A stretch of DNA of 64,000 nucleotides from a virus (taxonomy: Duplodnaviria; Caudoviricetes): IMG/VR virus record IMGVR_UViG_3300000169_000002, positions 29,837-93,836 of that record, one strand, 5' to 3'. Below the pieces are notes generated by a model, which ran no database searches, was not told the DNA's origin, and was given only the letters and a program-made list of their open reading frames with translations. Shown one piece after another: positions 5,653 to 34,255 of the stretch. The stretch's first letter is position 1. Each line of letters begins with the position of its first letter. The position numbers and the translations under genes are program-made.

Positions 5653-6857
5653 TGGCCAAAGATTATGAATGGACTAAAGATCAAAAAGAATGTATAAACG
5701 AGGCTGTTAAGTGGTATAAAAAACAGACAAAGCAAGTTTTTGAATATGCAGGTTGGGCAGGAGTTGGCAAAACAACCATCGTCCCACATATGATCAAAAA
5801 GATGGGTCTTGAAATGGATGAAGTCTTGGCTGTTGCGTTTACAGGAAAGGCTGCATCTAACCTGACCCTGAAAGGCATTCCAGCCACTTCAGCTCATGCA
5901 GGATTTATGGAACTAATTCAAGTTCCTAAAACTGATAAAGATGGTAATGTAATAAAAAAAGAAGGTAAAATTTTAAAAACATGGAAGTTTAAAAGAAAGG
6001 ATTCGATCCCAAGTCATATAAAACTTATTTTCATTGATGAAGCATATTTTCTGCCAAATGAGTTGGGGCAGATAGCCGAATCATTTGGTCTTCCAGTATG
6101 TGTTTGTGGAGATCCGGGACAACTTGGTCCAATCTACGGGAAACCAAGATACCTTTTAAAACCTGATTTCTTTATAAATGAAATTACGCGCCAAGGAAAA
6201 GAGTCAGGTATTATTGAACTTGCTACATTGATTAGAAATAATGAAGAACTTCCTTCGAAAAAGATGATTATAAAGAATGATGCTTTCATATTGCCAAAAA
6301 ATGAAGTTACAGATGAAATTCTTCTTAATGTAGATATTATTCTCTGCGGAAGAAATAAAACCAGAAATTATTTTAATAAAAGAATTAGAAATGACATTCT
6401 TGGAGTTAAATCAAAGCTTCCTGTGAAAGGCGATAAATTAATTTGCAGGCACAATTATTGGAATAGGACATTGGAAGATATACCTTTAACCAATGGGGTT
6501 ATCGGTACTGTGGTACACGATGTAGCAAAGTCATCTGTAGATTATAAATCTGGTGTAGTTAGGATAGATTTTATGCCAGATTACACTACAAAGAATTATT
6601 ATATGAATCTTCCTATAGATATAGATTATTTTCAAGAAGAATGTGGAATGCATGACGAGGAAGACGATTTTGAGTATGGTAAAAAATATGGAATAAAAAT
6701 GGAGCTTGCGAATGCAATAACAACTCATATTTCCCAAGGTTCAGATTTCCCCACAGTTTTATACTGGGATGAAGTTTATGGGGATCAAGATTTTATACGG
6801 AGATTAAGATACACGGGTTTAACCCGAGCAAGAAAAATCGCAATAATGGCTGTATAA
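5652..6857 (+). CDS. Dda/RecD-like SF1B DNA helicase
   Basis: Motifs GWAGVGKTT, IDEA, GDPGQLGP, AITTHISQGS and YTGLTRAR. Confidence 0.9.
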   Translation: MAKDYEWTKDQKECINEAVKWYKKQTKQVFEYAGWAGVGKTTIVPHMIKKMGLEMDEVLAVAFTGKAASNLTLKGIPATSAHAGFMELIQVPKTDKDGNVIKKEGKILKTWKFKRKDSIPSHIKLIFIDEAYFLPNELGQIAESFGLPVCVCGDPGQLGPIYGKPRYLLKPDFFINEITRQGKESGIIELATLIRNNEELPSKKMIIKNDAFILPKNEVTDEILLNVDIILCGRNKTRNYFNKRIRNDILGVKSKLPVKGDKLICRHNYWNRTLEDIPLTNGVIGTVVHDVAKSSVDYKSGVVRIDFMPDYTTKNYYMNLPIDIDYFQEECGMHDEEDDFEYGKKYGIKMELANAITTHISQGSDFPTVLYWDEVYGDQDFIRRLRYTGLTRARKIAIMAV

Positions 6858-6890
6858 ACTCCGTACCAGAAATTTATTCTGGTACGGAGT
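6858..6890 (+). terminator. Intrinsic terminator
   Basis: 13-bp stem ACTCCGTACCAGA/TCTGGTACGGAGT followed by a T-run. Confidence 0.85.
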
Positions 6891-6965
6891 GAATTTTTTC
6901 AAAATTATATATTATTATCATAGGATTAATTCTTTATCCATGAAAAGGAGTGCATAAAATAACAT

Positions 6966-7754
6966 ATGTGGATTATAAATAGCAATACTAGATATGGCGC
7001 TCTGGACTTTTTCACTATAAATTGTGTCGAAGAATGTTTAGAAATATTAAAAGATGATCTCGTTGATAAGGTCGTTGTGAATATAGTCCCATATACAAGG
7101 GCTGAATTTCTTATCGAGTGTGGAGGAGCTTCTCATAATACAAGAATTTTTAATAACAAATTTGATGCAACAAGACCTCCTAAGCTCCATGAAATTTTTT
7201 CTGAAGTAAATATATGTAATGATATCGAAAAACTTTTGGGAAGAAAACTATTTTTAAAATATTTCAAAAATAGATTTTTCACATTTATAGAATCTTTTGG
7301 CGTTGAAGTAAATGAATATTCGATGTTTACGATGTGTTTATTACATGAATTTGGCCATTGCAATTTGATGAAATTATTTTTACAGCTTGGGATGGAAAAA
7401 GAATATGACAACTTATATCATCTTTCTAAAGCTGTATCATATACGGTAAGTTCACATGTTACTGAAAAATTGTGGAATAAATATTATGGAATTTCTCTGA
7501 GACAAACTTCTGATCTGATGGAAAATAATGCAGATGCATACGCTTTTAAAAATTTTCCATACGTTTGGGAGCGTGTAAAAAAATTTATAAGACCTGAGTT
7601 GAAAAATAAAAGTGATTTGGTAATCACAAGATGTAGCGAAGGTATGAAAAGGACGAAGCTTTGGCTTGAATTTAAAAAATATCATATGACTCACATCCAA
7701 GGGGCTGCACAATATGATCAAAATCACGAAAAAGAATATCAATTCAAAATTTGA
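6966..7754 (+). CDS. HExxH zinc metallopeptidase-like protein (ImmA/IrrE-like), paralogue 1
   Basis: LLHEFGH plus a downstream ENNADAYA third-ligand motif. Confidence 0.6.
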   Translation: MWIINSNTRYGALDFFTINCVEECLEILKDDLVDKVVVNIVPYTRAEFLIECGGASHNTRIFNNKFDATRPPKLHEIFSEVNICNDIEKLLGRKLFLKYFKNRFFTFIESFGVEVNEYSMFTMCLLHEFGHCNLMKLFLQLGMEKEYDNLYHLSKAVSYTVSSHVTEKLWNKYYGISLRQTSDLMENNADAYAFKNFPYVWERVKKFIRPELKNKSDLVITRCSEGMKRTKLWLEFKKYHMTHIQGAAQYDQNHEKEYQFKI

Positions 7755-8331
7755 TTTTTTTAAAAAAATTTGTATTGAGGAATGTATAGATTATCTGAAA
7801 GACAAAATTCCTCCGGTTAAAGGAGTTCATGTTATCGAAAATGATGATAATGATAACTCCTTTCTGGATGATATCGGGGGAGCTTTGTGTACAGTTAAAT
7901 ATAATGATATTAATATCTATTGTGAAATATATATTTCAGGCGATATATTAGAATACTATAAAAAATATAAAGAACGAGATAGAAGGGAAAAATTCCTGAG
8001 ATCATTAGGAGTACCTGTTAACAAATACTCCTTGTTTTTAATAGTATTACTCCATGAATTTGGACACTCAAATTTAGTAAAAATGTTTTACGATGCAGGA
8101 ATCATAGATGACTATAATATATTTGATACTATTTCAGACTCACTCTCTTCTATTTTTGAAAAACGAGAGGAGACTCTTTTAAAATGGGAATTCCGTTACA
8201 AAAACAATGAACTTACAAATATCGTTAACGGGATAGAATCCCAAAGTGATATTTTTGCAAGGGATAATTTTCTTCCATTATGGAAGAAATTGAATAAAAT
8301 TTTAAGGTCTTACAAGTTAGACGAACTTTGA
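7714..8331 (+). CDS. HExxH zinc metallopeptidase-like protein, paralogue 2
   Basis: LLHEFGH plus ESQSDIFA; aligns by eye with the previous ORF. Confidence 0.6.
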   Translation: MIKITKKNINSKFDFFKKICIEECIDYLKDKIPPVKGVHVIENDDNDNSFLDDIGGALCTVKYNDINIYCEIYISGDILEYYKKYKERDRREKFLRSLGVPVNKYSLFLIVLLHEFGHSNLVKMFYDAGIIDDYNIFDTISDSLSSIFEKREETLLKWEFRYKNNELTNIVNGIESQSDIFARDNFLPLWKKLNKILRSYKLDEL

Positions 8332-10316: not shown

Positions 10317-12686
10317 GTGACCATCAGAATTTTATGGTACATGAGAAAAGACAAAGATGTATTTAAGTATACAGAAGATAAGATTACAGTAAACTACGAT
10401 GATAGGTCCAGAGTACGTCAATCACCAGAAGTTTATCTTCCCAGTACAGATCTTGAAGGGGCTATCCACCTGTTTGAAGAAATTTTCGCAAACAGCGCTG
10501 ATGAAGTCACAGCCCCTGAATCTTGTGGATCTGAAATCATCGTTACTATTGATGAAACAACTGGTGTTATCACCGTTCAGGATGATGGACGTGGTATACC
10601 ATTTGGAAAAATATTTGATCTTTGCGAGGTTCTCAGCTCATCTGGTAAGATGGGAACCAAAAATAGGGCGTATAACCATTCAACCGGCGCTTTCGGTATG
10701 GGTATGAAACTCGTGAACTTCCTGTCTGAGTATATGAAGATTCGGACGGAAAGAGATGGGAAGTTTATGGAGATTATTTACGAAGATGGCATTCGAAAGA
10801 ATGTCACTGAAGGTAAGTCGAAACACAGTGGGACCTATATCGAATGGAAAGTCGATAAAAGGTTCTTCTCTGATACCAATATCAAGTGTGAACATCTTTT
10901 GGATAAAATCCGAAAGAAGAGTTATGTTCTTGGTAAAACTACCATTATATTTAATGGTAAAAAGAAAAACGGAGAAGAAATTACTAAACAATTTAAGAAT
11001 GGTAAAATTCGAGATTATGTGACTCAATTTAAGATTTCTAGTCCAATTGCTGAATATAAAAATCAAGTTGGTAATAATAAAGTTGAATTTGTGTTCGGTT
11101 ACGACTTGGAAACTGAAGATGGACCCAATGTTATAGGGTTCACTAATGGCTCCTATAACAAATCTGGTGGATCTCATGTTAATGGTTTGATAGAAGGTTT
11201 GTCATCATTTATGAGAGCATATATGATGGATAGCTACCTCTCTGAAAAAGAGAAAAAAGATCTTAGAATCCTTACTGAGGATGTAAAGCAAGGTCTTGTT
11301 GGTATAGTTTCAGTATATGCCCTCAATCCAAATTATAAAGGTCAATATAAAGAAGGCCTTGAAGATAGTTCTTTGAAAAATTTTGTATTCAATTCTGTTC
11401 GTAAATATTTGAAGGACTGCGATAAAAGCGTTCTCAACAAATTCGCTCAAATTATCAAGGCAAATGCTAAAGCTCGCACAGCAGCTGAAAATACGAAGAA
11501 GAAAGTCAAGAAAGATATTGTCAATGCATTTTCTGCGGATAGGATTAGTGAGTATTTGCCAATCTCGAAATTTTCTAAGAGCAAATTTAGGGAATTGTGT
11601 ATTGTGGAGGGTCTTAGCGCTAAGGGCGGCTTTAAGGCTGTTCGCAATAAAGATGAGATGGCAATCCTTACAATCCGTGGTAAGGTTGAGAATATTTTTG
11701 ACCTCCCACCCGCTGAAGCTGTAAAATCTTCTAAGTTCCTGTCCAATCTTGTACAGATTTTCGAATGTGAAAACGAGAATATCAAAAACTTCGATATCAA
11801 TAAACTTCAGTTCACCAGAATCAATCTTATTACAGATGCTGATACAGACGGTGATGAAATCTCTTGTCAACTTGCTATGATTTTCGCAAGATTTTTTCCG
11901 AGTATTGTAACATCCGGCCGTCTCTATAAAGTTGTACCTCCATTGTATGAGGTCAAGATTAAAGGAGAGACTGTGTTCATTCCGACAATTCGGGATTATA
12001 TGAAATATACTCAGGAAAGCTTTGCGAAATCTCATAAACTTTATTTGAACGGAAAGGAAATGAAGCAAGAAGATCTGCTGGACTTCTTGGTTGAATTCCA
12101 CCGTTATAAAGATAATCTGAAGTATTTGGCGGATCAATATGTCTTGACCCCGGAGTTCGCCGAATTCCTTATCAGTAATCTCCATGTGGGGTTCGAGAAT
12201 GATAAAGTTGATCTTTGGAATAAAAAGATTCTTCCAAGTAAGTTCAGGTTCATGCGAGCATATGCCGGAGATAATGGATTTATACAAATCGAGGGTATGG
12301 TTGGAAGCGAATATAACTTCTTCGAATACACTGAAGAATTTATTGAGGACGTAACTCAACGATATCAAATCAATCCGAATGCTTACTTCTATGGGTATAC
12401 TGTCGACGATAAACCTATGAGTCTCTATGGTGTGATGACCGAAGTTTCCAGGTATGCACCTAAGATAGTGACTAGGTTTAAAGGTCTTGGCGAGATGCCA
12501 TCTGAAGACCTTGAAAGAACAGTTGTCGACAGAAGGGCTCGTCATAGCATTCGTTTGACTATGGAAGATATCGAGAGGGACTATGAGCGAATGGCTGTTA
12601 TGCACTCTAAGAAGCCACACTATTCTGAACGTCGTAAAGTTTTCATGAGAAACTTCAAGTTTGACATAATGGACATTGACACCTAA
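10317..12686 (+). CDS. gyrB: Type IIA topoisomerase subunit B (GyrB/ParE)
   Basis: GHKL motifs EIFANSADE, DDGRGIP and GAFGMG; TOPRIM motifs VEGLSA, IRGK and DADTDG; RFKGLGEM. Confidence 0.92.
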   Translation: MTIRILWYMRKDKDVFKYTEDKITVNYDDRSRVRQSPEVYLPSTDLEGAIHLFEEIFANSADEVTAPESCGSEIIVTIDETTGVITVQDDGRGIPFGKIFDLCEVLSSSGKMGTKNRAYNHSTGAFGMGMKLVNFLSEYMKIRTERDGKFMEIIYEDGIRKNVTEGKSKHSGTYIEWKVDKRFFSDTNIKCEHLLDKIRKKSYVLGKTTIIFNGKKKNGEEITKQFKNGKIRDYVTQFKISSPIAEYKNQVGNNKVEFVFGYDLETEDGPNVIGFTNGSYNKSGGSHVNGLIEGLSSFMRAYMMDSYLSEKEKKDLRILTEDVKQGLVGIVSVYALNPNYKGQYKEGLEDSSLKNFVFNSVRKYLKDCDKSVLNKFAQIIKANAKARTAAENTKKKVKKDIVNAFSADRISEYLPISKFSKSKFRELCIVEGLSAKGGFKAVRNKDEMAILTIRGKVENIFDLPPAEAVKSSKFLSNLVQIFECENENIKNFDINKLQFTRINLITDADTDGDEISCQLAMIFARFFPSIVTSGRLYKVVPPLYEVKIKGETVFIPTIRDYMKYTQESFAKSHKLYLNGKEMKQEDLLDFLVEFHRYKDNLKYLADQYVLTPEFAEFLISNLHVGFENDKVDLWNKKILPSKFRFMRAYAGDNGFIQIEGMVGSEYNFFEYTEEFIEDVTQRYQINPNAYFYGYTVDDKPMSLYGVMTEVSRYAPKIVTRFKGLGEMPSEDLERTVVDRRARHSIRLTMEDIERDYERMAVMHSKKPHYSERRKVFMRNFKFDIMDIDT

Positions 12687-12713: not shown

Positions 12714-12998
12714 TTGGCCAACCGTAAACAATTTAGAATCAAATATTACAGCGCCGATGACTCTCAATTGTATACGATTATCCAGGTGGCGCCTACGTCA
12801 TTTGAAGCCATTACCAAAGCAGAAGAAAGAATTAGACGATCGACCGAAAATTTCCAAATTGTTCTTGTTGAGGATCTCAACTCTGATTTTTATATTAATC
12901 AGATTAGAGACATCCTGACAACCTCGATTCAAAGAGAAAAGGAAAGAGAGGCTGCAAAATGGGTAAATCCAAAAAAGGTAAAAAGAAAAATGGCATGA
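12714..12998 (+). CDS. Hypothetical protein
   Basis: TTG start after GGGGTG. Confidence 0.6.
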   Translation: MANRKQFRIKYYSADDSQLYTIIQVAPTSFEAITKAEERIRRSTENFQIVLVEDLNSDFYINQIRDILTTSIQREKEREAAKWVNPKKVKRKMA

Positions 12999-13177
12999 AG
13001 GAATTCGCTGTCACCTACTCGTTCAGGGGAATTCCTGGGACTGCCGTAGTCGAAGCTATCGACAAATACTTCGCAATCATGAAATTCAAAGAAACCAACC
13101 CCGGTGCGGTAATCAAAGACGTAAAAGAAATCATTCCACCAAAACCCGAAGATGACAGCCAAGTGAGTAACGGCTGA
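12995..13177 (+). CDS. Small hypothetical protein (60 aa)
   Basis: ATGA overlap with the upstream stop; GC-rich codons. Confidence 0.55.
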   Translation: MKEFAVTYSFRGIPGTAVVEAIDKYFAIMKFKETNPGAVIKDVKEIIPPKPEDDSQVSNG

Positions 13178-13197: not shown

Positions 13198-15624
13198 ATG
13201 ACTATCAGAGTAAGACCAATACCGGGATTCTTCAATATGGAATATATTGAAGAAAAAAATATTGCAGAGTTTGACGAGCAGGGGATGGCTCTCCACGGGG
13301 TCAACCGGAACCTTCAGAGAAACATCGCCCTGTTTTATGATAACCTGAAGGTTGTCCATAGGCGTATTCTCTACGCCATGGCAACAATGGGACTCCGTCC
13401 GGATAGAAACTTTTCTAAAGCTGCTGGCGTTGTCGGCAGAATTATCGAGAAGTATCATCCGCATGGGGACTCAGCGACGTATGAAGCTTTGATTTTTATG
13501 GGGCAACCTTGGAGAAATATCATGCCTCTGGTTGAAGTTAAAGGTAACTACGGAAATGCCGAAGGTCCTGATGAATATGCTCAAATGCGGTATGTTGAAT
13601 GTCGCTTGAACAGTTTCGCCTGGGACTGCTTCTTCAGTGAATGGGATTTGAAATCTGATCTCGTTGATATGAGGCCCACGTTCAATGGAGAAGATGTGGA
13701 ACCGCTGTATCTTCCAGCAAAATATCCACTCTTTCTCATGAACTGGGGGAGCGGGATGGGATTCGGTCTCTCCACATCTAGTCCTGGGTTCCTTCCACAG
13801 GATGCAATGCAAGCTGTTATTGATCTTATCAAAGATCCGAAAGCAAATATTGTATTGTATCCTGAGGACCCGATGGGATGTACCATCATTGGGAAAAAAG
13901 TCTTCAAGAAATTTGTGGACCATAACTTCAATGAAAAAGATGACGAGAGCTTGAAGTTTAGGGTTCGGTCTGATTATGTGGTGGAAAACGGGATTATTAG
14001 AATCTTGAATACACCATTTGAGGTCAGTCCGAAGACGGTCTTTAATAAAATTGTAGAGCTTAAAAATAATAAGAAGATTGATGGAATTATAGATATGGAA
14101 GTTGAGCTGAAACCGGGTAAAATTCCGCAGCTCAAAGGTAAAGAAGATACTATGAATATCATTATTGAATATTCCAAGGGTGTCGACCCGCACATCCTTA
14201 TGGAGAAACTCTATAAACTTACTCAGCTTGAGACCACTTTCTCTCTGAATTGTGTTTACGTTGATATGAACAAGAACGTTAAATTCAATTTGAGAGAAAG
14301 CATCCTGTATTGGATTAAATTGAGGAGAAAGGTTCTCAAACGTATGTATAGGTCTCAGCTGAATGAAAAGTCGAAAAGAAATTATGTGCTGGATGCACTT
14401 ATTGACCTTTTCGACAAAAATCAAATTGATGCAGTTATCAATATCTTTAAGAAGAATAAGAGGTCTGATGTCGCAGAGATTCTCATAAAGAAGTATAACA
14501 TCAGCGACTATCAGGCAAAGAAGATCTCTGAAATGAGACTTAGTGATCTTTCTCCTGACGCATATGAGGAGTATGTGAAGGAGAGAAAAGAAAATGCTAA
14601 AAAGATCAGAGAACTTCAAGATATTCTGAAAAACAAAAAGACTCTTGATGAGATCATTATTCGCCAAATGGAAGAGGGTATTAAGAAATATTCTCGTCCG
14701 AGACAATCTAAAGTGATTGAGATGGCGAATGAAAATAAAGAAGAAGAATTTTTCGATATAGAAGTAATCAATACTGGTCATGTGAGAAAAATCAAACATG
14801 GTAATAATATCGAACTCAATACTGAAGATGCAGTTCTTGTTAGTAAATACGAAAATATTGGAGATACAAACAAATTGTTTGTGTTTACTAACACTGGACT
14901 GGTGTTTAGCGACTATATTTCTAATATCAGAGTTTCCAAAGATCAAAGTATTGGAAGCTTTCTTTCAAGGAGATATGAATCCGCAAAATATGCAGCGGTC
15001 GGGTCTCTGGTTGGGAAGGAATCTTCTTCGAGTAATGTGATTTGCGTCACTAAGCAAGGTATTGTGAAGAGCAGTAAATTCTCAGACTATTTCATCTCAT
15101 CCCAAGGAAGCTACGGAATCAAGCTTTCTAAGAATGATGAACTCGTAACTGTTTTGGAAGCCACCTCTAATGACATTAAATCTTCTAGAGTTCTCATTTA
15201 TACGAAAAATGGTAAATGTGTGATGTTCCCAGTGAACGATATCACTGTAACGTCCAGATTTACTATGGGCAACATGGGAATCAAGCTCGAAGAGGGAGAC
15301 TATGTCATTGGGGCAGAGATTGTTAAATCTTCTGATGAATATATCGTCACAATCTCTGAAAATGGGTACGTCAAAAAGTTCTCAATTGAAAATACGTTTA
15401 ACAATATTAGACGAGGATCTTACGGAGTATCTATAGTATCATCTGATGAAAATCTTCATAAGGTGGCTACTGTTAGCTCCAAAATCTCTACACTCAAGCT
15501 TATTTCCCTTCAAGGCGTAGAGGAGATTAAACTGGATGAACTTCAGGTTAAAACCAGGTTGTCGTCCGGAGATAAGCTTCTCAAAGCTAGAAGGAAGAAT
15601 GAAGTTATTGTGAAAGAAAAATAA
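13198..15624 (+). CDS. gyrA: Type IIA topoisomerase subunit A (GyrA/ParC) with beta-pinwheel C-terminal domain
   Basis: Motifs DNLKVVHRRILY, KYHPHGD and catalytic AQMRY; C-terminal T-x-x-G blade repeats. Confidence 0.92.
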   Translation: MTIRVRPIPGFFNMEYIEEKNIAEFDEQGMALHGVNRNLQRNIALFYDNLKVVHRRILYAMATMGLRPDRNFSKAAGVVGRIIEKYHPHGDSATYEALIFMGQPWRNIMPLVEVKGNYGNAEGPDEYAQMRYVECRLNSFAWDCFFSEWDLKSDLVDMRPTFNGEDVEPLYLPAKYPLFLMNWGSGMGFGLSTSSPGFLPQDAMQAVIDLIKDPKANIVLYPEDPMGCTIIGKKVFKKFVDHNFNEKDDESLKFRVRSDYVVENGIIRILNTPFEVSPKTVFNKIVELKNNKKIDGIIDMEVELKPGKIPQLKGKEDTMNIIIEYSKGVDPHILMEKLYKLTQLETTFSLNCVYVDMNKNVKFNLRESILYWIKLRRKVLKRMYRSQLNEKSKRNYVLDALIDLFDKNQIDAVINIFKKNKRSDVAEILIKKYNISDYQAKKISEMRLSDLSPDAYEEYVKERKENAKKIRELQDILKNKKTLDEIIIRQMEEGIKKYSRPRQSKVIEMANENKEEEFFDIEVINTGHVRKIKHGNNIELNTEDAVLVSKYENIGDTNKLFVFTNTGLVFSDYISNIRVSKDQSIGSFLSRRYESAKYAAVGSLVGKESSSSNVICVTKQGIVKSSKFSDYFISSQGSYGIKLSKNDELVTVLEATSNDIKSSRVLIYTKNGKCVMFPVNDITVTSRFTMGNMGIKLEEGDYVIGAEIVKSSDEYIVTISENGYVKKFSIENTFNNIRRGSYGVSIVSSDENLHKVATVSSKISTLKLISLQGVEEIKLDELQVKTRLSSGDKLLKARRKNEVIVKEK

Positions 15625-23448: not shown

Positions 23449-23808
23449 ATGTCTAAATTAAAGATTGATCAAATTGTAGAAGATTGTATACTTTTAAGCA
23501 CAAGCTTACCACAGATATCTGTGGCCGAGTGTATTGAATTGACAAAGATTGTTCATTCTCATAATTGTAGAGTATGCGATTACCCGGAATATCAAAGTAA
23601 ATTCATTCAACATCCTGAAGAAATTATTTTACATTTAAAATCAATTATCGTTAATAACGATTTTGAAGCAGTTATTTTTAATAAACGTGTAGCCGATAGG
23701 ACTTATAAAATAATTATTAAATTTATTCAATTAGATTCAAAAAATATGGCACAAATTTTGATATATAAAAGCGAACCTGACAGGAGGATTCCCGATGCTT
23801 CAACCTGA
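23449..23808 (+). CDS. Hypothetical protein
   Basis: Early promoter and AGGGTG RBS; overlaps the start of the RNAP gene. Confidence 0.6.
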   Translation: MSKLKIDQIVEDCILLSTSLPQISVAECIELTKIVHSHNCRVCDYPEYQSKFIQHPEEIILHLKSIIVNNDFEAVIFNKRVADRTYKIIIKFIQLDSKNMAQILIYKSEPDRRIPDAST

Positions 23809-25879
23809 GCAAATGGAAGAACTTGACCGAATTGCAAGTGAACTGAAAAACATTGACCATGCATATGGGAGCGGGTTATTCATCCCGTTGGGTAACAAAG
23901 TAAACTCTTCCCGTGCAGCTTTGGTTTATCAACAAATTGGCCAGTCTAAAAATTTGGAAAAGCCTGAAATTCCAAGAATCGTGACCGGCTATGAAAAAGC
24001 CTTTGGTGATAGATCCACGTCTTATCTCAAAGCTGATAGAAGATATGAAGTCGTCGAAAAGATTAGAAAATTCGATAATGATTATGTATATGCATTGGTA
24101 GTTAAAGAAGTAGGAAGAAACTATTATGACATTATTTTCAGAAATGAAGTTGAATCCTTCGCAGAATCTGCTGGTGTGCGAATGGATAATGAAAATATTG
24201 ATTCTAAGAAAGTTGGAGATATTATTGAGGAAGGAGAAATTCTCTATAAGTCCCGCTCCTATGATGAAAATATGAACTATCGCCTTGGTATCAATGCAAA
24301 AACCTTGTATCTCGTTGATCCGGCGATTGTTGAGGATGCATTTAGAATTTCTGATACACTTGCAAAAAGGTTGAAAACTACTGAAGTGAATACGTTCAAG
24401 ATCCCTAAAAATACTAACGATATTCTGCTTAACTTGTATGGGGATAATGAAGAATATAAAGCATTTCCGGATATCGGCGAAAAGGTAAAGAATAAAGTTC
24501 TGTGTGGGCGACGCAGAATTGACTATAACAATGCTCAATATATGCTGAAGAGCAAAAATCTTAGAAAAGAAATGTTTGGAGATACACTTTATTATACTGA
24601 AGGAACTGTCATCGATATTGACATCTTTTCGAACATCCCTATCGAAGAAGTTCCGAATGATAAAGTTAACAAACAAATTCTCAAGTATATGAAAATGATT
24701 AATAGATATTGGCAAGAGCTTAAGAGGGTATTGGGTCGAATCGTTGAAAATCCTGAAAACGAATATTCCGATCAGATCGGAATTACCTATGCCAGGGCTA
24801 AAGACGTGATGAGTATTGGTAAATATGTAAAATGGGATGACGACGGCTCGATTTTCGATAGCATGATTATCTATATTACTGTGGTGAATACAAAAAATGC
24901 TGTTATTGGAACGAAACTTGTGGGTCGCCATGGTAATAAAGGTGTCGTTTCAGAAATTGTTCCTGAAAAATATATGCCAAAGAGCGAAGATGGTGAACAT
25001 GCTGAAATTATTTTCAGTGCGCTCAGTGTAATTGGGCGACTTAATCCGTCTCAGCTTTATGAATTGGAATTGAACTGGATTGTTGATGAAATTCTATCTG
25101 GCGACGTTTCAAATAAAAAGAAATTTGAGGCTTTGTTGGATTTCCTCTCTATCTGTAATCCGGATCAGGAGAAACAAGTTAGAGAATTTTATGAATCTCT
25201 CAATAAAGAAGAGAAAGAAGAATTTCTTTCTCAAATAACTAAAGAATTCGTAGTATTTCAACCTCCGAGCATGTCTATTAGTTTTAAAAATTATGGTGAA
25301 CTGATCGAGAAATTCAAACCGAAAAAGAAGAAGTTCACCATTATGGACGAATCTGGTAAAGTGTTTAATATCCAAAGAAAACTTATTATGTCTGATACGT
25401 ATATTTATAGATTGAAACATGAACCGATTACAAAATTCTCGGTCAGATCTAAAGGTACGATCAATCCTAGAACTTTCCTTCCGATTAAATCTCATGCATA
25501 TAGCAGAGGGACTGCACTGTTTAACAATCAGGCAATACGGATTGGAAATATGGAAATGGATATTCTCAATTTGTGTAATGACCCTGCGGCTATTAACTAT
25601 TTCACGCGACTGTATTGCACATCTGTGATTGGGCGTCGCGAATTTGCACAGTTGTTGTATACAAACTTGTTTTCTGAAGATCTTGAAATTGAAATGGAGA
25701 ATCCAAAGTCCAGGGTTGTTGACCTGTTCAATGCTACATTTATGGTATGTGGTATGGCTTTGGAATTTGAATATGGAAAAACTAAGGATGTTGAGGAATT
25801 CTTCCTTGAAGAACTGAAACAGATGGACAAGAAAACAATCAAAGTAGTATTTGGTGGATGGGATAAATTAAGAGTATAA
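23795..25879 (+). CDS. RNA polymerase beta subunit, C-terminal half (probably non-virion RNAP)
   Basis: Motifs VEDAFRIS, GTKLVGRHGNKGVVS, SVIGRLN, YIYRLKH and IRIGNME; in an early operon. Confidence 0.9.
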   Translation: MLQPEQMEELDRIASELKNIDHAYGSGLFIPLGNKVNSSRAALVYQQIGQSKNLEKPEIPRIVTGYEKAFGDRSTSYLKADRRYEVVEKIRKFDNDYVYALVVKEVGRNYYDIIFRNEVESFAESAGVRMDNENIDSKKVGDIIEEGEILYKSRSYDENMNYRLGINAKTLYLVDPAIVEDAFRISDTLAKRLKTTEVNTFKIPKNTNDILLNLYGDNEEYKAFPDIGEKVKNKVLCGRRRIDYNNAQYMLKSKNLRKEMFGDTLYYTEGTVIDIDIFSNIPIEEVPNDKVNKQILKYMKMINRYWQELKRVLGRIVENPENEYSDQIGITYARAKDVMSIGKYVKWDDDGSIFDSMIIYITVVNTKNAVIGTKLVGRHGNKGVVSEIVPEKYMPKSEDGEHAEIIFSALSVIGRLNPSQLYELELNWIVDEILSGDVSNKKKFEALLDFLSICNPDQEKQVREFYESLNKEEKEEFLSQITKEFVVFQPPSMSISFKNYGELIEKFKPKKKKFTIMDESGKVFNIQRKLIMSDTYIYRLKHEPITKFSVRSKGTINPRTFLPIKSHAYSRGTALFNNQAIRIGNMEMDILNLCNDPAAINYFTRLYCTSVIGRREFAQLLYTNLFSEDLEIEMENPKSRVVDLFNATFMVCGMALEFEYGKTKDVEEFFLEELKQMDKKTIKVVFGGWDKLRV

Positions 25880-26042: not shown

Positions 26043-28241
26043 ATGTCTAAACTTTTAAAGAAGTCCAATAAACTTCTACGAAAAATCGAAGATGGAAAAT
26101 ATGTCTCAGCAGTTATTGGATTACAAGATCCAGATATTATTATGGATCTTCATGAAATAACTTTTAAGCCGGATAAATCTGTTACAAAAGAAGAGCTTGA
26201 GGCTGTTGAAAATATTCTTAAAGTAAGTAAAGCACTCTACGAACTTAATCAATATATGAGTGGATTTGTGTACAAACTTATGCCCGATGAAATGTATGAC
26301 AGGCTTATTGAGAAATATAAAAATATCACGGGCGGGAAAGAACCATTTCAATCTTTCATTCCATCTGGGATGAGAAGTGTGGAACAGGATTTTCCTGAAC
26401 TGTCTGGTACTTTGGATAAAGTTTATGAGATTTATGATACTACAAATAAACCTTCTTTGGAGAAGTGGCTCAGGAAAATAATGAAAGAACTTAATGTTAA
26501 AAAACTGAAGCTTCTTGTAACTCCGAAGTTTGATGGAACTTCCGTAACTGTAACTTATGACAAAAGTGAAAGTAAAAGCCATATTGTATATCCAGTAAAA
26601 GCATTGACTCGTGGAGATTTCGAAAGAAATCTTGGAGTTGATCTGTCTAACATTCTCAAAGGTGTGGATTCTGTTTATGTAACAAGTACCGATTTCTATA
26701 ACACTATTCCCAGAAGATTTGGGGTCCAGTATGAAGCAATGATTACTGAATATGGAAGGAAAAGACTTTCTGAGGTCGTAGGAATTAATTATTCTACAAG
26801 AAGGGCGGCAATTGCTTCAGCTCTTAAAAGATTGACAAATCCAAAAACAACTGTTGAGGAGGCAAAGGAAATCAATAAGTGTATAACCCTTGTCCCTCTT
26901 ATGGTTGACAATTATTTTATGCAGACATTCAGAAGAAAGATGAGTTTACACGATCTTATGATCGCAGTAAACTTTAATTTCTATATATGTGATGCTGAAA
27001 ACACACTTAGCTTTGAAATAAAGTCTATCCATGGAGATATTGATTATCTGCTTTCTAAATTTAAAGAAATAGTTGAGGACTATGTAAACAGAAGAAACAG
27101 TATGAACTATAGTATTGATGGATTGGTTCTGACTATTGACGATTATAATCATATAGCGAAACTTGGAAGATCCAGTAACAAGAATAAGTGGCAAATTGCA
27201 TATAAATTCGATGCCTTGACACAAAGAACGAGAATTACTGGAATCATTCCAACAATGGGAAAACAAGGTTTCATTGGAGCCAATATCACATTCGAACCAA
27301 TTGAATTTAATGGTGTTCGGTACGAGAAAGCTCCAGTGAATAATATTACAAGATTTCGTGAACTTGATCCTCATATTGGGGATGAAGTGATTGTATCCTA
27401 TAACGCTGATGTTATGGGGTATATTTATAAAGATGAAACATGTACGCCTAGTAAAAATGGGGAACCTCTTGAACTTCCAACCCATTGTATAAAATGTGGC
27501 GAACCACTAACTGTGGCTAAGGATATGTTGAAATGTGTGAATGATGACTGTCCTGGCCATAAAGTGGGAAAAATTCTTGAGACCATCCGTATATTTGACC
27601 TGGACTTTTTCGGCGAAGAAACTGCAAATGACCTCGTCGATAAAGCTGGAATCTCAGATACAATTGAGTTCATACAAATGAAATATGAAGACTTGGCTAA
27701 AGTCCTCAAAGGTCTTAATTTGGAAAAAGCCTGGGAAGAGTTTCAAAATAAAATTAAAGCCCCGATTGAATATCCCAAAGTAATTGACCTTTTGAGGATT
27801 CCAAGTCTTAGAACAAAAACTGCTGAAAAGATCCTTGAAGATATTCCTATAAACCAGCTCGAAGAATGGATGAAAACTGGTAATGTCAAAGAGTTATATT
27901 CCGCTCTGAAAAAAGTCAAAGGAATTGACAAAAAGGCAGATGAGTTTGCGATTGCATTGGTAAATGCATATGAGGAATTTTCACAACTCAAGAAACTTCT
28001 TAACTGTGTAGACTCTAGTGGTAAGGAATACAATAAAGTTATTTTGGTATCAGGTTTTAGAAGCAATTCCGAATTTGACTCTATCTGCAAAAAGTTAAAT
28101 TTTAAAGTAATTGAAACAGGTAGTAAATATGATTTATTGGTAGTAACTCCTGAGAGGCTCGATGGGAAGAAAGCATTACAGGCAAGAAAGAAAGGCATTC
28201 CTATAATGCTTCTTTCAGAGTTCATCAGGACATATTCTTAA
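26043..28241 (+). CDS. ligA: NAD-dependent DNA ligase
   Basis: Motifs KFDG, ALTRGD, IDGLV and IAYKF; C4 zinc finger; C-terminal BRCT-like region. Confidence 0.9.
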   Translation: MSKLLKKSNKLLRKIEDGKYVSAVIGLQDPDIIMDLHEITFKPDKSVTKEELEAVENILKVSKALYELNQYMSGFVYKLMPDEMYDRLIEKYKNITGGKEPFQSFIPSGMRSVEQDFPELSGTLDKVYEIYDTTNKPSLEKWLRKIMKELNVKKLKLLVTPKFDGTSVTVTYDKSESKSHIVYPVKALTRGDFERNLGVDLSNILKGVDSVYVTSTDFYNTIPRRFGVQYEAMITEYGRKRLSEVVGINYSTRRAAIASALKRLTNPKTTVEEAKEINKCITLVPLMVDNYFMQTFRRKMSLHDLMIAVNFNFYICDAENTLSFEIKSIHGDIDYLLSKFKEIVEDYVNRRNSMNYSIDGLVLTIDDYNHIAKLGRSSNKNKWQIAYKFDALTQRTRITGIIPTMGKQGFIGANITFEPIEFNGVRYEKAPVNNITRFRELDPHIGDEVIVSYNADVMGYIYKDETCTPSKNGEPLELPTHCIKCGEPLTVAKDMLKCVNDDCPGHKVGKILETIRIFDLDFFGEETANDLVDKAGISDTIEFIQMKYEDLAKVLKGLNLEKAWEEFQNKIKAPIEYPKVIDLLRIPSLRTKTAEKILEDIPINQLEEWMKTGNVKELYSALKKVKGIDKKADEFAIALVNAYEEFSQLKKLLNCVDSSGKEYNKVILVSGFRSNSEFDSICKKLNFKVIETGSKYDLLVVTPERLDGKKALQARKKGIPIMLLSEFIRTYS

Positions 28242-28257
28242 TTTAAAACAATATATT

Positions 28258-28555
28258 AGGATGCGGAAAAGTGTGATGAGTCATATTAAGCAAGGTTAAG
28301 GGGAACCGTCGAATCCGGCATTTGGTTCTTTTGAAAAACTGAGACTTCGAATTATCCCGCCTAATACGATAGGGATGATTATAGCAATCTTGCCTCGGAT
28401 TTTTCCGTCTGGGTTAATTAGCTGTGGGCTATTAACTGTCGCGGGAAGAGAAGAGAAACTTGCTGAAGTTCTCAGAAAAGAGCGGCAATGCTGGTAGATG
28501 GTAAATTGTTTGGTGGGGGTAAGTTAATAGACTCATTATCACACTCCGCTATCCT
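28258..28555 (+). ncRNA. Putative ~300-nt structured non-coding RNA of unknown class
   Basis: Late promoter at 28247-28258; 5' and 3' ends pair; more than 10 nested helices with G·U wobbles only in + orientation; 3' hairpin at 28565-28591; no credible ORF. Confidence 0.75.
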
Positions 28556-28564
28556 TAATATAGA

Positions 28565-28591
28565 GGCCAGGAGTCTTATAGACTCCTGGCC
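28565..28591 (+). terminator. Hairpin closing the ncRNA unit
   Basis: GGCCAGGAGTC-TTATA-GACTCCTGGCC; weak U-tract. Confidence 0.65.
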
Positions 28592-28812
28592 CAATCACTT
28601 TAAAATTTCAATTTTTAGAGAAGTATATATTATTGTATTGGTAAAGAAACATCTTTATCGAACTATAGTATTAATTATGGGGTGATGTTTATAGAAATAT
28701 AAGTGAATAAAATTCACTTACTTTTGGAAAATATATATTATTACATTGTGAAAGACACAATATTAGCAATAATATGTGTCTTTAAATATCAACAAATGGG
28801 AGGAAAAAAGAA

Positions 28813-29520
28813 ATGGCGAAAAAACTGATCGAGATCACCAACTCTGTTGCCAGCAAAGCATTTTATTGTGAAAAGGATGTCGGCGGCGAAGCCAAAAAGG
28901 CAGAGGTCGACATTGCGGTTCAATCCATTATCGATACCGGCATTTCGAATGCAATTCCGCGGACTCTCTATCTCATGATGGAACAAGATCCGCGGGAAGA
29001 AGTGCAGCTGGTCTTGGGGCCCTTCACGTATGGCCTCATTGCCAGGAAATCCGGCGAAGACGGCCTCTCGTTCAACCCCACGTTCAGCTTGACTGACGAA
29101 AAGAAACTTCTCAATGAACTGGAGCTTTTCGCCGACAAGCTGACCAACCGTGTTGGCATGATCGAAGAAATGGCCAACGCGATTGACAACGAAGTTTATC
29201 TGGAGACGGTCCTCCACACCTGCAGACTGGATGAATATGATCCGGTTGAAGGCGAATGGATCGAAAAGAAAGCCGACGCCGACAAGGGTGTTGAACTCGA
29301 CCAAACGGCAGCCAAGCTGTTCACGGCGCTGCACATTTCTGCAATTCTGCATGTTCTGGCCGACAAAAAGAATCCGGATGAAGTCTTCAAATATGAAGTT
29401 CCCGGCGAAGGAACTTACACCATTGAAAGAAAGAAAGACAAATGGGAAATCGGCTTCATCCCGTCCAAGGAATTCAAGCAAACCATCAAGAACGACCGGC
29501 TCATCGAAGCTCTTGTCTGA
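28813..29520 (+). CDS. Probably abundant DNA-binding protein with tandem HU/IHF-like halves
   Basis: EEVQLVLGPFTY...PTFSL and YEVPGEGTYTI...IGFIPSKEFKQTIK each resemble the HU core; GC-rich codons. Confidence 0.5.
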   Translation: MAKKLIEITNSVASKAFYCEKDVGGEAKKAEVDIAVQSIIDTGISNAIPRTLYLMMEQDPREEVQLVLGPFTYGLIARKSGEDGLSFNPTFSLTDEKKLLNELELFADKLTNRVGMIEEMANAIDNEVYLETVLHTCRLDEYDPVEGEWIEKKADADKGVELDQTAAKLFTALHISAILHVLADKKNPDEVFKYEVPGEGTYTIERKKDKWEIGFIPSKEFKQTIKNDRLIEALV

Positions 29521-31512: not shown

Positions 31513-31520
31513 AAATAAAT

Positions 31521-31558
31521 AAGCCAGGGAGATTTCCTCCCTGGCTTTATTTTTTTTT
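31521..31558 (+). terminator. Intrinsic terminator
   Basis: AAGCCAGGGAG-ATTTC-CTCCCTGGCTT followed by a T-run. Confidence 0.85.
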
Positions 31559-31560
31559 GC

Positions 31561-31749
31561 TTATTTTTCTGCATTTTGTACAGTTTCTTCAACCATATCC
31601 ATGTGTTTCTTTAATATATCAGAAATATCAATAGAAATACCGAGTAATATCCAGTAAAAATACATTCCCCTTTTTATGCTATCCGGGTCCTTAGTATTAC
31701 ATTCAGTCCTTTGGAATTGTTCAACCATTGATTTAGCCTCATTTGACAT
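31561..31749 (-). CDS. Possible small hypothetical protein
   Basis: 62-aa ORF filling the gap between two hairpins; weak RBS. Confidence 0.35.
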   Translation of the reverse strand: MSNEAKSMVEQFQRTECNTKDPDSIKRGMYFYWILLGISIDISDILKKHMDMVEETVQNAEK

Positions 31750-31823
31750 TCAAAATCATCTCATATATTTTTTTATATATAGTTAAAAGAATAAGAAGGG
31801 AGACCCTTCTTATTCTTTTTTGC

Positions 31824-33447: not shown

Positions 33448-33568
33448 ATTCGATCATATCCTTTCCTATTAATTATACTATTAATGTAGTGTTTAGATAT
33501 CTAACCGCTGTACATTTCTATATTTGGGAACATCTGATTAATCTATATAATATAAAGAGGTGTTCTGA

Positions 33569-34255
33569 ATGGGTGTCGATGTATATAAAGAATTGTATAA
33601 TAAAAATTTTCTATCACAATATAAATCTCAATTATTTGAAAATTTAAAAGAAAATGACCCCGCTCAAGAATTTAATATTAATAATGATCTGGCTTTGGAG
33701 GTTATGATTATTACTCTTACTGAAATTCTTGAAGAGGCAAACTCTCAGCTTTCGGGTCCAATTAATGAAGGTGTAGGTAGTGTTATGAGGAAGGCAAGTG
33801 ATGCAATGTCTAAAGCTGCGGTTAAGGTAACGTTAGCTGACAGACAGCTTTCTGAAAGAATTAATGATAAATTTAATAGATATCTTAAACTCTATAGAGA
33901 AAGTAAAAGAAACGCTGCATATGATACGGTTGTAAAAAGGGCAATTGATCTTTCAAGAATATTGAAAAATGTTATCATGTCTTCTATTGTGGGTCTTTTG
34001 GTTCCAGGTACTGCAGCAGTTAAACTTGTAAGTGCTATAATTGCTATATTGGTAAAAACCGCTATTGATAAAAGAACCGACGCTAAATACAAAAATCTCA
34101 TATTCAATGATTTGAAACTTGAATTGAAAATTGTTCAAGAGAAAATTAAAGATGCTGATGCTCGTGGTGACATTAAAGCAAAATATAAACTTATGAGAAT
34201 TGAAAATGAACTTGGACGAGCAATGAATCGTATTCAATTTAATTTGAGAGATTGA
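33569..34255 (+). CDS. Probable internal head protein
   Basis: Late promoter at 33529; N-terminal L/I-x-E sites; lies in the head cluster. Confidence 0.55.
   Translation: MGVDVYKELYNKNFLSQYKSQLFENLKENDPAQEFNINNDLALEVMIITLTEILEEANSQLSGPINEGVGSVMRKASDAMSKAAVKVTLADRQLSERINDKFNRYLKLYRESKRNAAYDTVVKRAIDLSRILKNVIMSSIVGLLVPGTAAVKLVSAIIAILVKTAIDKRTDAKYKNLIFNDLKLELKIVQEKIKDADARGDIKAKYKLMRIENELGRAMNRIQFNLRD

Follow-up and report, generated by a model that had tools for sequence, protein, structure and literature searches.

Several described RNAs share features with the ~300-nt rod-shaped RNA reported here. Ms1 and 6S RNA are, like this RNA, stand-alone and probably abundant non-coding RNAs that form a long irregular rod through pairing of their 5' and 3' ends, and they likewise belong to genomes with multisubunit RNA polymerases of their own. 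Ms1 is in addition a rod of ~300 nt with paired termini, although this is a resemblance in shape only. The RNA described here differs from both in that it is located in a phage, matches none of their Rfam models and has no conserved central bubble. Besides, it carries a conserved apical three-way junction, which is missing in 6S RNA. The packaging RNA (pRNA) of phi29 is also phage-encoded, also combines a terminal helix with a three-way junction and also retains its secondary structure while the sequence diverges fast. However, the rod RNA has about twice the length of pRNA, lacks loops that interlock, belongs to another phage type and is presumably made late, whereas pRNA is made early. To our knowledge, pRNA occurs exclusively in small phages of the phi29 type.

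Two further comparisons are useful. Adenovirus VA RNA I, a rod RNA of viral origin, inhibits a dsRNA sensor of the host. It shares with the RNA studied here the viral origin, a highly base-paired rod with paired termini and a terminal stem, and a domain of complex structure in the centre or at the apex; the phage RNA, too, could conceivably act as a decoy. In contrast, VA RNA I comes from a eukaryotic virus, is ~160 nt long and is made by Pol III, which limits the comparison to the possible mode of action. GOLLD and ROOL are, in turn, conserved and covarying phage-borne non-coding RNAs of unknown function that were found by comparative genomics. They differ in being ornate, multi-domain, cage-forming RNAs of 580-800 nt with Rfam entries, whereas the present RNA is a 300-nt rod with no match to their models.

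In jumbo phages that encode RNA polymerases of their own, transcription follows a programme that is independent of the host, and we know of no RNA regulator of this programme. For the jumbo phage AR9, 94 late start sites were mapped to the motif AACA-(6N)-TA/G, the last base of which is the start (Lavysh et al., PMC5312081). An AR9-type motif of this kind stands at the foot of the rod RNA.

Source phage and gene neighbourhood

The window, by which we mean the whole stretch of 64,000 nt that was analysed, belongs to an IMG/VR viral contig of 93.8 kb with an estimated completeness of 44%. Two sequencing runs are listed with DNA of this phage, both of them manure metagenomes from one study, whereas the search for runs with its RNA gave no match. 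The closest cultured phages are AR9/PBS1-like, with a ligase identity of only ~27%. The product of 23795-25879 shows 38% identity to AR9 g089, which corresponds to the C-terminal half of beta in the non-virion RNA polymerase, and the product of 29632-31512 matches the N-terminal part of beta in Staphylococcus jumbo phages. The beta subunit is encoded by a split gene in the window phage, and the gene of the rod RNA lies between the beta-C and beta-N halves. Further products of the window are a prohead protease of T4 type and a major head protein. For the early-promoter core of AR9, ATATATTAT, 19 copies were counted against 2.8 expected; 17 of these are on the + strand before genes, and the sites include 25996, 28625 and 28733. 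This excess before genes indicates that the clade shares the early promoter of AR9 as well as the late one. Together with the split polymerase, the T4-type head genes and the low ligase identity, it identifies the source as an uncultivated, distant AR9-like jumbo phage.

The locus is composed of the following features:

26043-28241, + strand: NAD-dependent DNA ligase gene (ligA), identified by a Pfam match; conserved upstream neighbour with synteny in 14 loci
28247-28258, + strand: AR9-type late promoter motif AACA-N6-TA (AACAATATATTA) after the AR9 consensus (PMC5312081); predicted +1 at A28258
28258-28555, + strand: rod-shaped RNA proper, ~298 nt, with paired 5' and 3' ends in the minimum-energy fold
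28565-28591, + strand: GC-rich hairpin of 12 bp (28565-28576 with 28580-28591), putative terminator or 3' protective hairpin
28625-28633, + strand: first AR9-type early promoter core ATATATTAT, which serves the downstream gene and not the rod RNA
28733-28741, + strand: second AR9-type early promoter core, belonging to the downstream gene and located after the hairpin
28813-29520, + strand: gene of a conserved acidic 235-aa protein with a possible single-chain HU/IHF-like fold; conserved downstream neighbour of the rod RNA

A first-pass annotation of this DNA had placed the tract between ligA and an HU-like gene. While the ligase is confirmed by Pfam, the HU-like assignment holds as a possibility only. 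The 235-aa protein has no match in Pfam, PHROGs or tblastn and no clear Foldseek match in the PDB. Its AF2 model (pLDDT 89.5) gave middling scores in a wide structural search, with a Z of 6.4 for single-chain IHF and of ~4 for HU, and the best structural matches, at a Z of 8.6, are microtubule inner proteins, which are unrelated. The GC content of its gene is 0.47-0.54, compared to ~0.33 in the surroundings. In many relatives, the protein is present as two paralogues in tandem, one conserved and one divergent. In locus L004, a short ORF after the RNA (6840-6950) has a start that by eye resembles the N-terminus of the HU-like protein, and a full-length copy follows at 7368-8072. As the 235-aa protein is acidic and driven by early promoters, it is not an obvious partner of the rod RNA.

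Two other gaps of the window caught our attention. A GC-richer gap of 511 nt between the large genes 10317-12686 and 13198-15624, which by eye look like topoisomerase subunits, contains two small ORFs (12714-12998 and 12959-13177, + strand; 94 and 72 aa) and no structured RNA. The gap 31513-31823 (- strand), which leads from the polymerase beta-N gene to a virion protein gene, gives a good minus-strand fold, with a z of -8.0 against simple shuffles.

The transcription unit

The late promoter that had been proposed at the start of the tract is present: AACAATATATTA at 28247-28258 conforms to the AR9 consensus, and AACA-N6-T(A/G) is found at the rod foot in 13 of the 14 related loci (12 by scan and L168 by eye, with L169 as the exception). 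In all 14 homologues, pairing of the rod begins within 1-6 nt of the predicted +1, in most cases at this very base. Since the total count of AACA-N6-TA in the window is not above chance, the signal is carried by the position of the motif. Additional copies lie 30-40 nt upstream of start codons at 33482-33493 (-), 33529-33540 (+), 15701, 21982, 29584 and 43974 (+); the minus-strand motif at 33493-33482 precedes the head protease gene, and another one precedes the gene at 33569, both of them late genes. By analogy to AR9, the promoter at the rod foot would be used late in the window phage.

On the 3' side, a hairpin follows the rod at the same place in all homologues, separated from the rod end by a linker of 9 nt in the window. 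It had been described with 11 bp; the hairpin itself stands, but it comprises 12 bp. A clear U-run after the hairpin is found in L004, L006 and L007. As a scan of the window detected no U-run directly after 28565-28591, the 3' end of the transcript in the window phage is uncertain.

This arrangement bears on the possibility that the rod is a cis-acting mRNA element: it could stabilise the ligA mRNA as its 3' UTR, or it could act on the HU-like and beta-N genes as a late leader or attenuator. The rod has the same orientation as both neighbours, is always located upstream of the HU-like gene(s) and is not separated from ligA by a terminator in the window, and the missing U-run makes read-through beyond the hairpin plausible. 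Early ligA transcripts in the window probably run into the rod, which could then also serve as a 3' UTR. However, a conserved promoter at the foot belongs to the rod itself, and early promoters located behind the hairpin serve the downstream gene. In L004, a separate hairpin terminator and an AT-rich spacer of ~150 nt lie between ligA and the promoter of the RNA (6240-6430), which argues that the RNA is not merely the 3' UTR of ligA, and an extra ORF is inserted between ligA and the rod in L169 and L170. Moreover, hairpin and rod do not overlap, and consequently there is no switch-like alternative pairing, and a sequence-conserved three-way junction of ~115 nt exceeds the needs of a stabiliser. 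Based on our data, we consider an exclusively cis-acting element unlikely.

Fold, conservation and covariation of the rod

RNAfold predicts a minimum free energy of -135.3 kcal/mol for 28247-28600 on the + strand, compared to -90.4 +/- 5.4 kcal/mol for shuffled sequences (z -8.3; none of 100 shuffles as good). Every nested helix that had been listed by eye is contained in this minimum-energy structure, in which the base-paired rod extends over roughly 85-100 nt per strand. With a z of -11.3, the intergenic gap 28242-28812 far exceeds all others of the window in structure (+1.2 to -8.0). The description of the tract as relatively GC-rich also applies, its GC content rising to 0.44-0.45 versus ~0.33 in the flanks. 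From foot to tip, the rod consists of:

28258-28289, + strand: 5' strand of the closing stem, pairing with 28524-28555; 48-62% identity to the homologues, with pairing retained in each
28524-28555, + strand: 3' strand of the closing stem, from the fold and from pairing in the homologues
28290-28304, + strand: 5' side of an A/U-rich, weakly paired zone opposite 28503-28523 in the fold; not a conserved large bubble
28305-28502, + strand: conserved core of upper rod and three-way junction, covered by the covariance models R1 and R2 (185.4 bits with R1)
28305-28348 with 28465-28502, + strand: upper rod, from the fold
28333-28338, + strand: GAAAAA asymmetric internal loop in the upper rod, the only unpaired motif retained (as GAAAAN) in all seven family members
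28350-28380, + strand: apical arm A, a 9-bp hairpin with a 13-nt loop; compensatory changes in seven of eight pairs (helix 4 of the covariation test)
28383-28464, + strand: apical arm B with a conserved purine-rich 4x4 internal loop (helices 5-8 of the covariation test)

A protein search with the ligase yielded six IMG/VR loci, four of them distinct (62-66% identity), and in each an alignable RNA is located just 3' of the ligase gene; a ligase profile search gave the same six loci. For a MAFFT alignment of five sequences, RNAalifold reported 66 pairs, 26 of which show compensatory double changes. Using the covariance model R1, which represents the 198-nt core, the family could be extended. R1 scored 176-186 bits in four relatives. 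Lower scores were obtained for L163 (45.8 bits) and L167 (20.5 bits), two contigs that were reached via more distant ligases. The resulting alignment of seven sequences was fitted to the model and therefore leans towards pairing: 48 of its 65 pairs are changed on both sides, and 91.3% of the cells are paired compared to 72.4% in shuffles. None of 500 shuffles reached any of the measures, and sliding of the partner strand lowered pairing to 42-51%. The unfitted, MAFFT-based result with five sequences agrees in direction. Thus, both the comparison with shuffles and the covariation among ligA-adjacent homologues, which the first-pass annotation had suggested as checks together with an Rfam search, came out in favour of a structured RNA.

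At the nucleotide level, the core (67-69% identity) is as conserved as the protein genes on either side, and the outer stems (48-68%) are still paired in every homologue. Invariant bases are concentrated in the upper rod and in the three-way junction. In the 4x4 loop of arm B, GGAU is opposite AGAA in the window and opposite UGAA in the four closest relatives; judged from these bases, the loop could form tandem sheared G.A pairs.

In total, the family is small: seven members are detectable by the model (the window and six relatives), and the syntenic loci amount to 14. Seven more distant contigs, with ligases that are 42-50% identical, have a non-coding gap of 380-590 nt in the same slot after the ligase gene. 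Each of these gaps folds into a rod of 200-340 nt with a multi-branch tip (three-way junction), followed by a GC hairpin. Neither R1 nor the broader R2 detected the rods of the distant relatives L164-L171, apart from L167 with its 20.5 bits in R1. Within subgroups, compensatory changes were found in 25 of 65 pairs (L165/L166/L168) and in 8 of 39 pairs (L164/L169). From position, promoter and shape, we infer that the seven distant rods are fast-diverging homologues.

The search for described relatives gave a consistently negative picture. A gathering-score scan of the whole window with Rfam 15 returned no family match to the rod RNA, including the GOLLD and ROOL models, and at E<=10 the region 28100-28850 gave only chance matches on the minus strand at the hairpin. 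The models of 6S, Ms1 and pRNA had no match in either scan. Y RNA and YrlA likewise had no Rfam match, and genes for their partner Ro60 (TROVE), for dsRBD proteins or for L7Ae are absent in the related complete phage genomes. ARAGORN found no tRNA or tmRNA, in line with the absence of such hallmarks noted before. DNA searches in the INPHARED collection of cultured phages gave no match, R1 has none in AR9 and BpSp, and according to the gene maps the gap after the ligase gene does not exist in AR9 and in the Staphylococcus phage PALS_2. A loose pattern scan of viral contigs produced false positives only, among the matches listed, and a tight three-block pattern applied to viral contigs and metagenomes produced known contigs and false positives only. 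In a pattern scan of 185,579 bacterial species genomes, no cellular homologue appeared. A reverse transcriptase (RVT_1) has no match in the genomes G000, G001 and G002, which argues against a retron or DRT. Antisense targets in the window are at chance level, with 12 exact 11-mers against ~9 expected. Finally, our literature search found no published description of a post-ligase rod RNA.

Two candidates were discarded. The pattern match in L132 is coding sequence and not a rod RNA. In AR9 (L152), a late start site with its promoter motif between g090 and g091 (1180-1500, - strand) leads into a 16-bp hairpin and then into sequence antisense to g090; this is not a rod and is unrelated.

A large central bubble had been described for the RNA, along with a stem-bubble-stem layout recalling 6S RNA. 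The weakly paired zone does exist in the window, but the bubble is not a property of the family: a loop of 10+10 nt or larger is formed in only one of the 14 folds (L006, 13+13), the other 13 having loops of 8+8 nt or smaller, or none. For a 6S-type mimic of an open promoter, the bubble would have to display the template strand of the late promoter (UGUU etc.) and thereby trap the non-virion polymerase. This idea draws on the loosely paired A/U-rich zone of the rod (28290-28304 with 28503-28523), in which UGGUAAAUUGUU is found in the window, and on the AR9 non-virion polymerase, for which the promoter is read in the template strand with its uracils (PMC5449584, PMC9209446). However, UGGUAAAUUGUU is the complement of the non-consensus AACA-N6-CA. 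UGUU with the appropriate spacing is absent from the entire RNA in L003, L165, L169 and L170, and in the remaining homologues it occurs at non-equivalent, mostly paired positions. With conserved nucleotides in the upper rod and apical junction instead of the bubble, and with 6S and Ms1 models that do not match, the analogy to 6S RNA is not supported, and we regard such a mimic as very unlikely.

Nor did the alternative offered at that stage, a packaging RNA, fare better. Such an RNA would resemble phi29 pRNA and multimerise on the portal, or it would accompany the packaged virion polymerase. The presumed late expression would suit a virion component, the three-way junction resembles that of pRNA, and fast sequence change with retained structure is common to both. 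On the other hand, the apical loops show no conserved complementarity: the best complement between loop A and loop B measures 2-5 nt, at positions that differ from sequence to sequence. The Rfam model of pRNA does not match, and the genome that carries the rod RNA is that of an AR9-like jumbo phage with T4-type head genes, unlike the carriers of pRNA. We assign this function a slight probability, marginally below that of the promoter mimic.

The strand on which the structure is selected can be read from the G.U pairs. In the window folds there are 17 G.U pairs on the + strand and 2 on the minus strand, and a similar one-sided bias to the + strand is present in 10 of the 14 homologues (e.g. 16:2, 13:2, 14:6, 16:6, 13:3, 16:7 and 18:5). 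As G.U pairs of the + strand are A.C mismatches on the other strand, the structure appears to be selected in RNA and not in DNA, which upholds the initial argument for a + strand RNA. An incidental RNA fold of a DNA-level element (replication origin, cruciform or mobile palindrome) would be compatible with a long imperfect inverted repeat beside replication genes and with a minus strand that also folds well, although worse than the + strand (-106.3 kcal/mol, z -6.35). However, the rod occurs in one copy per genome, also in genomes of 207 kb and 247 kb that are estimated to be complete, and it is framed by a promoter at its foot and a hairpin after its end. One-sided G.U pairs and single copy together argue for selection on the + strand transcript and against a DNA palindrome or a mobile repeat, an explanation that we consider highly improbable. 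Least probable of all is a small protein encoded by the 40-aa ORF at 28375-28497. Similar peptides are readable in the window, L004 and L007, but the ORF has no ribosome-binding site, is broken in two of the four closest homologues (19 aa in L006, absent in L003) and has no counterpart common to the more distant homologues, and substitutions track base pairing; in this sense the tract is ORF-free, as first described.

Proposed function of the rod RNA

The structure of the RNA, its conservation and its coding strand are directly evident or strongly supported by these data. Covariation, strand asymmetry, the conserved promoter at the foot and the missing Rfam match are all in agreement with the original proposal of a new stand-alone phage RNA, and we are highly confident that the locus represents an independent gene for a non-coding RNA.

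As to function, our preferred reading is that the RNA is stable, is made late and uses its conserved apical domain to bind a protein, either as a decoy or as a scaffold. This reading is tentative, and we give it somewhat less than an even chance. Judging from AR9, the non-virion RNA polymerase would start at A28258 from the AACA-N6-TA late promoter, and transcription would run for ~300 nt and end at or after the hairpin 28565-28591. The triphosphate-bearing 5' end would be base-paired to the 3' end, and the GC hairpin would cap the 3' side and add to stability. Bacterial RNA decay proceeds via established 5'-end-dependent and 3' exonucleolytic routes. Given these routes, a paired triphosphate 5' end and a 3' hairpin suggest a long-lived RNA, which may accumulate late in infection. 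The proposal of protein binding derives from the distribution of conservation, as a stem that drifts but stays paired and a loop-rich tip that is conserved in sequence point to a specific binding platform on a structural handle. The platform would include i) the GAAAAN loop, ii) the purine-rich 4x4 loop and iii) the invariant bases of the junction, with the lower stem as the handle. There, the RNA may bind its protein as a decoy or scaffold.

Among possible partners, one of the multisubunit RNA polymerases of the phage is the leading candidate because the RNA gene is located between the halves of the non-virion beta gene; its probability is nevertheless low, as this position is the sole link and a weak pointer, the RNA gene being part of a conserved core block anyway. 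A host nuclease or defence sensor comes second, at a slightly lower probability, followed by another phage protein or a virion component, which we rate a little lower again; a small remainder is not assigned to any partner. If a polymerase were the partner, the RNA might bind the virion polymerase and keep it silent until packaging, or it might bind the non-virion polymerase and tune late transcription. It would then be the first RNA known to regulate a multisubunit RNA polymerase of phage origin, acting via an apical junction and not via a 6S-type bubble, an outcome that we judge as improbable as the polymerase partnership on which it depends.

Independent of the partner, the large structured phage RNAs, a short list so far, are joined by a well-supported orphan family, and the design of the rod RNA with paired termini could be a natural stable RNA scaffold. 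The distant loci further indicate that structured phage RNAs can outrun detection by covariance models and yet retain slot, promoter and shape. For the AR9-like jumbo phages, a covarying RNA of 300 nt between the halves of the polymerase beta gene provides a concrete candidate for a regulator of the phage transcription programme.
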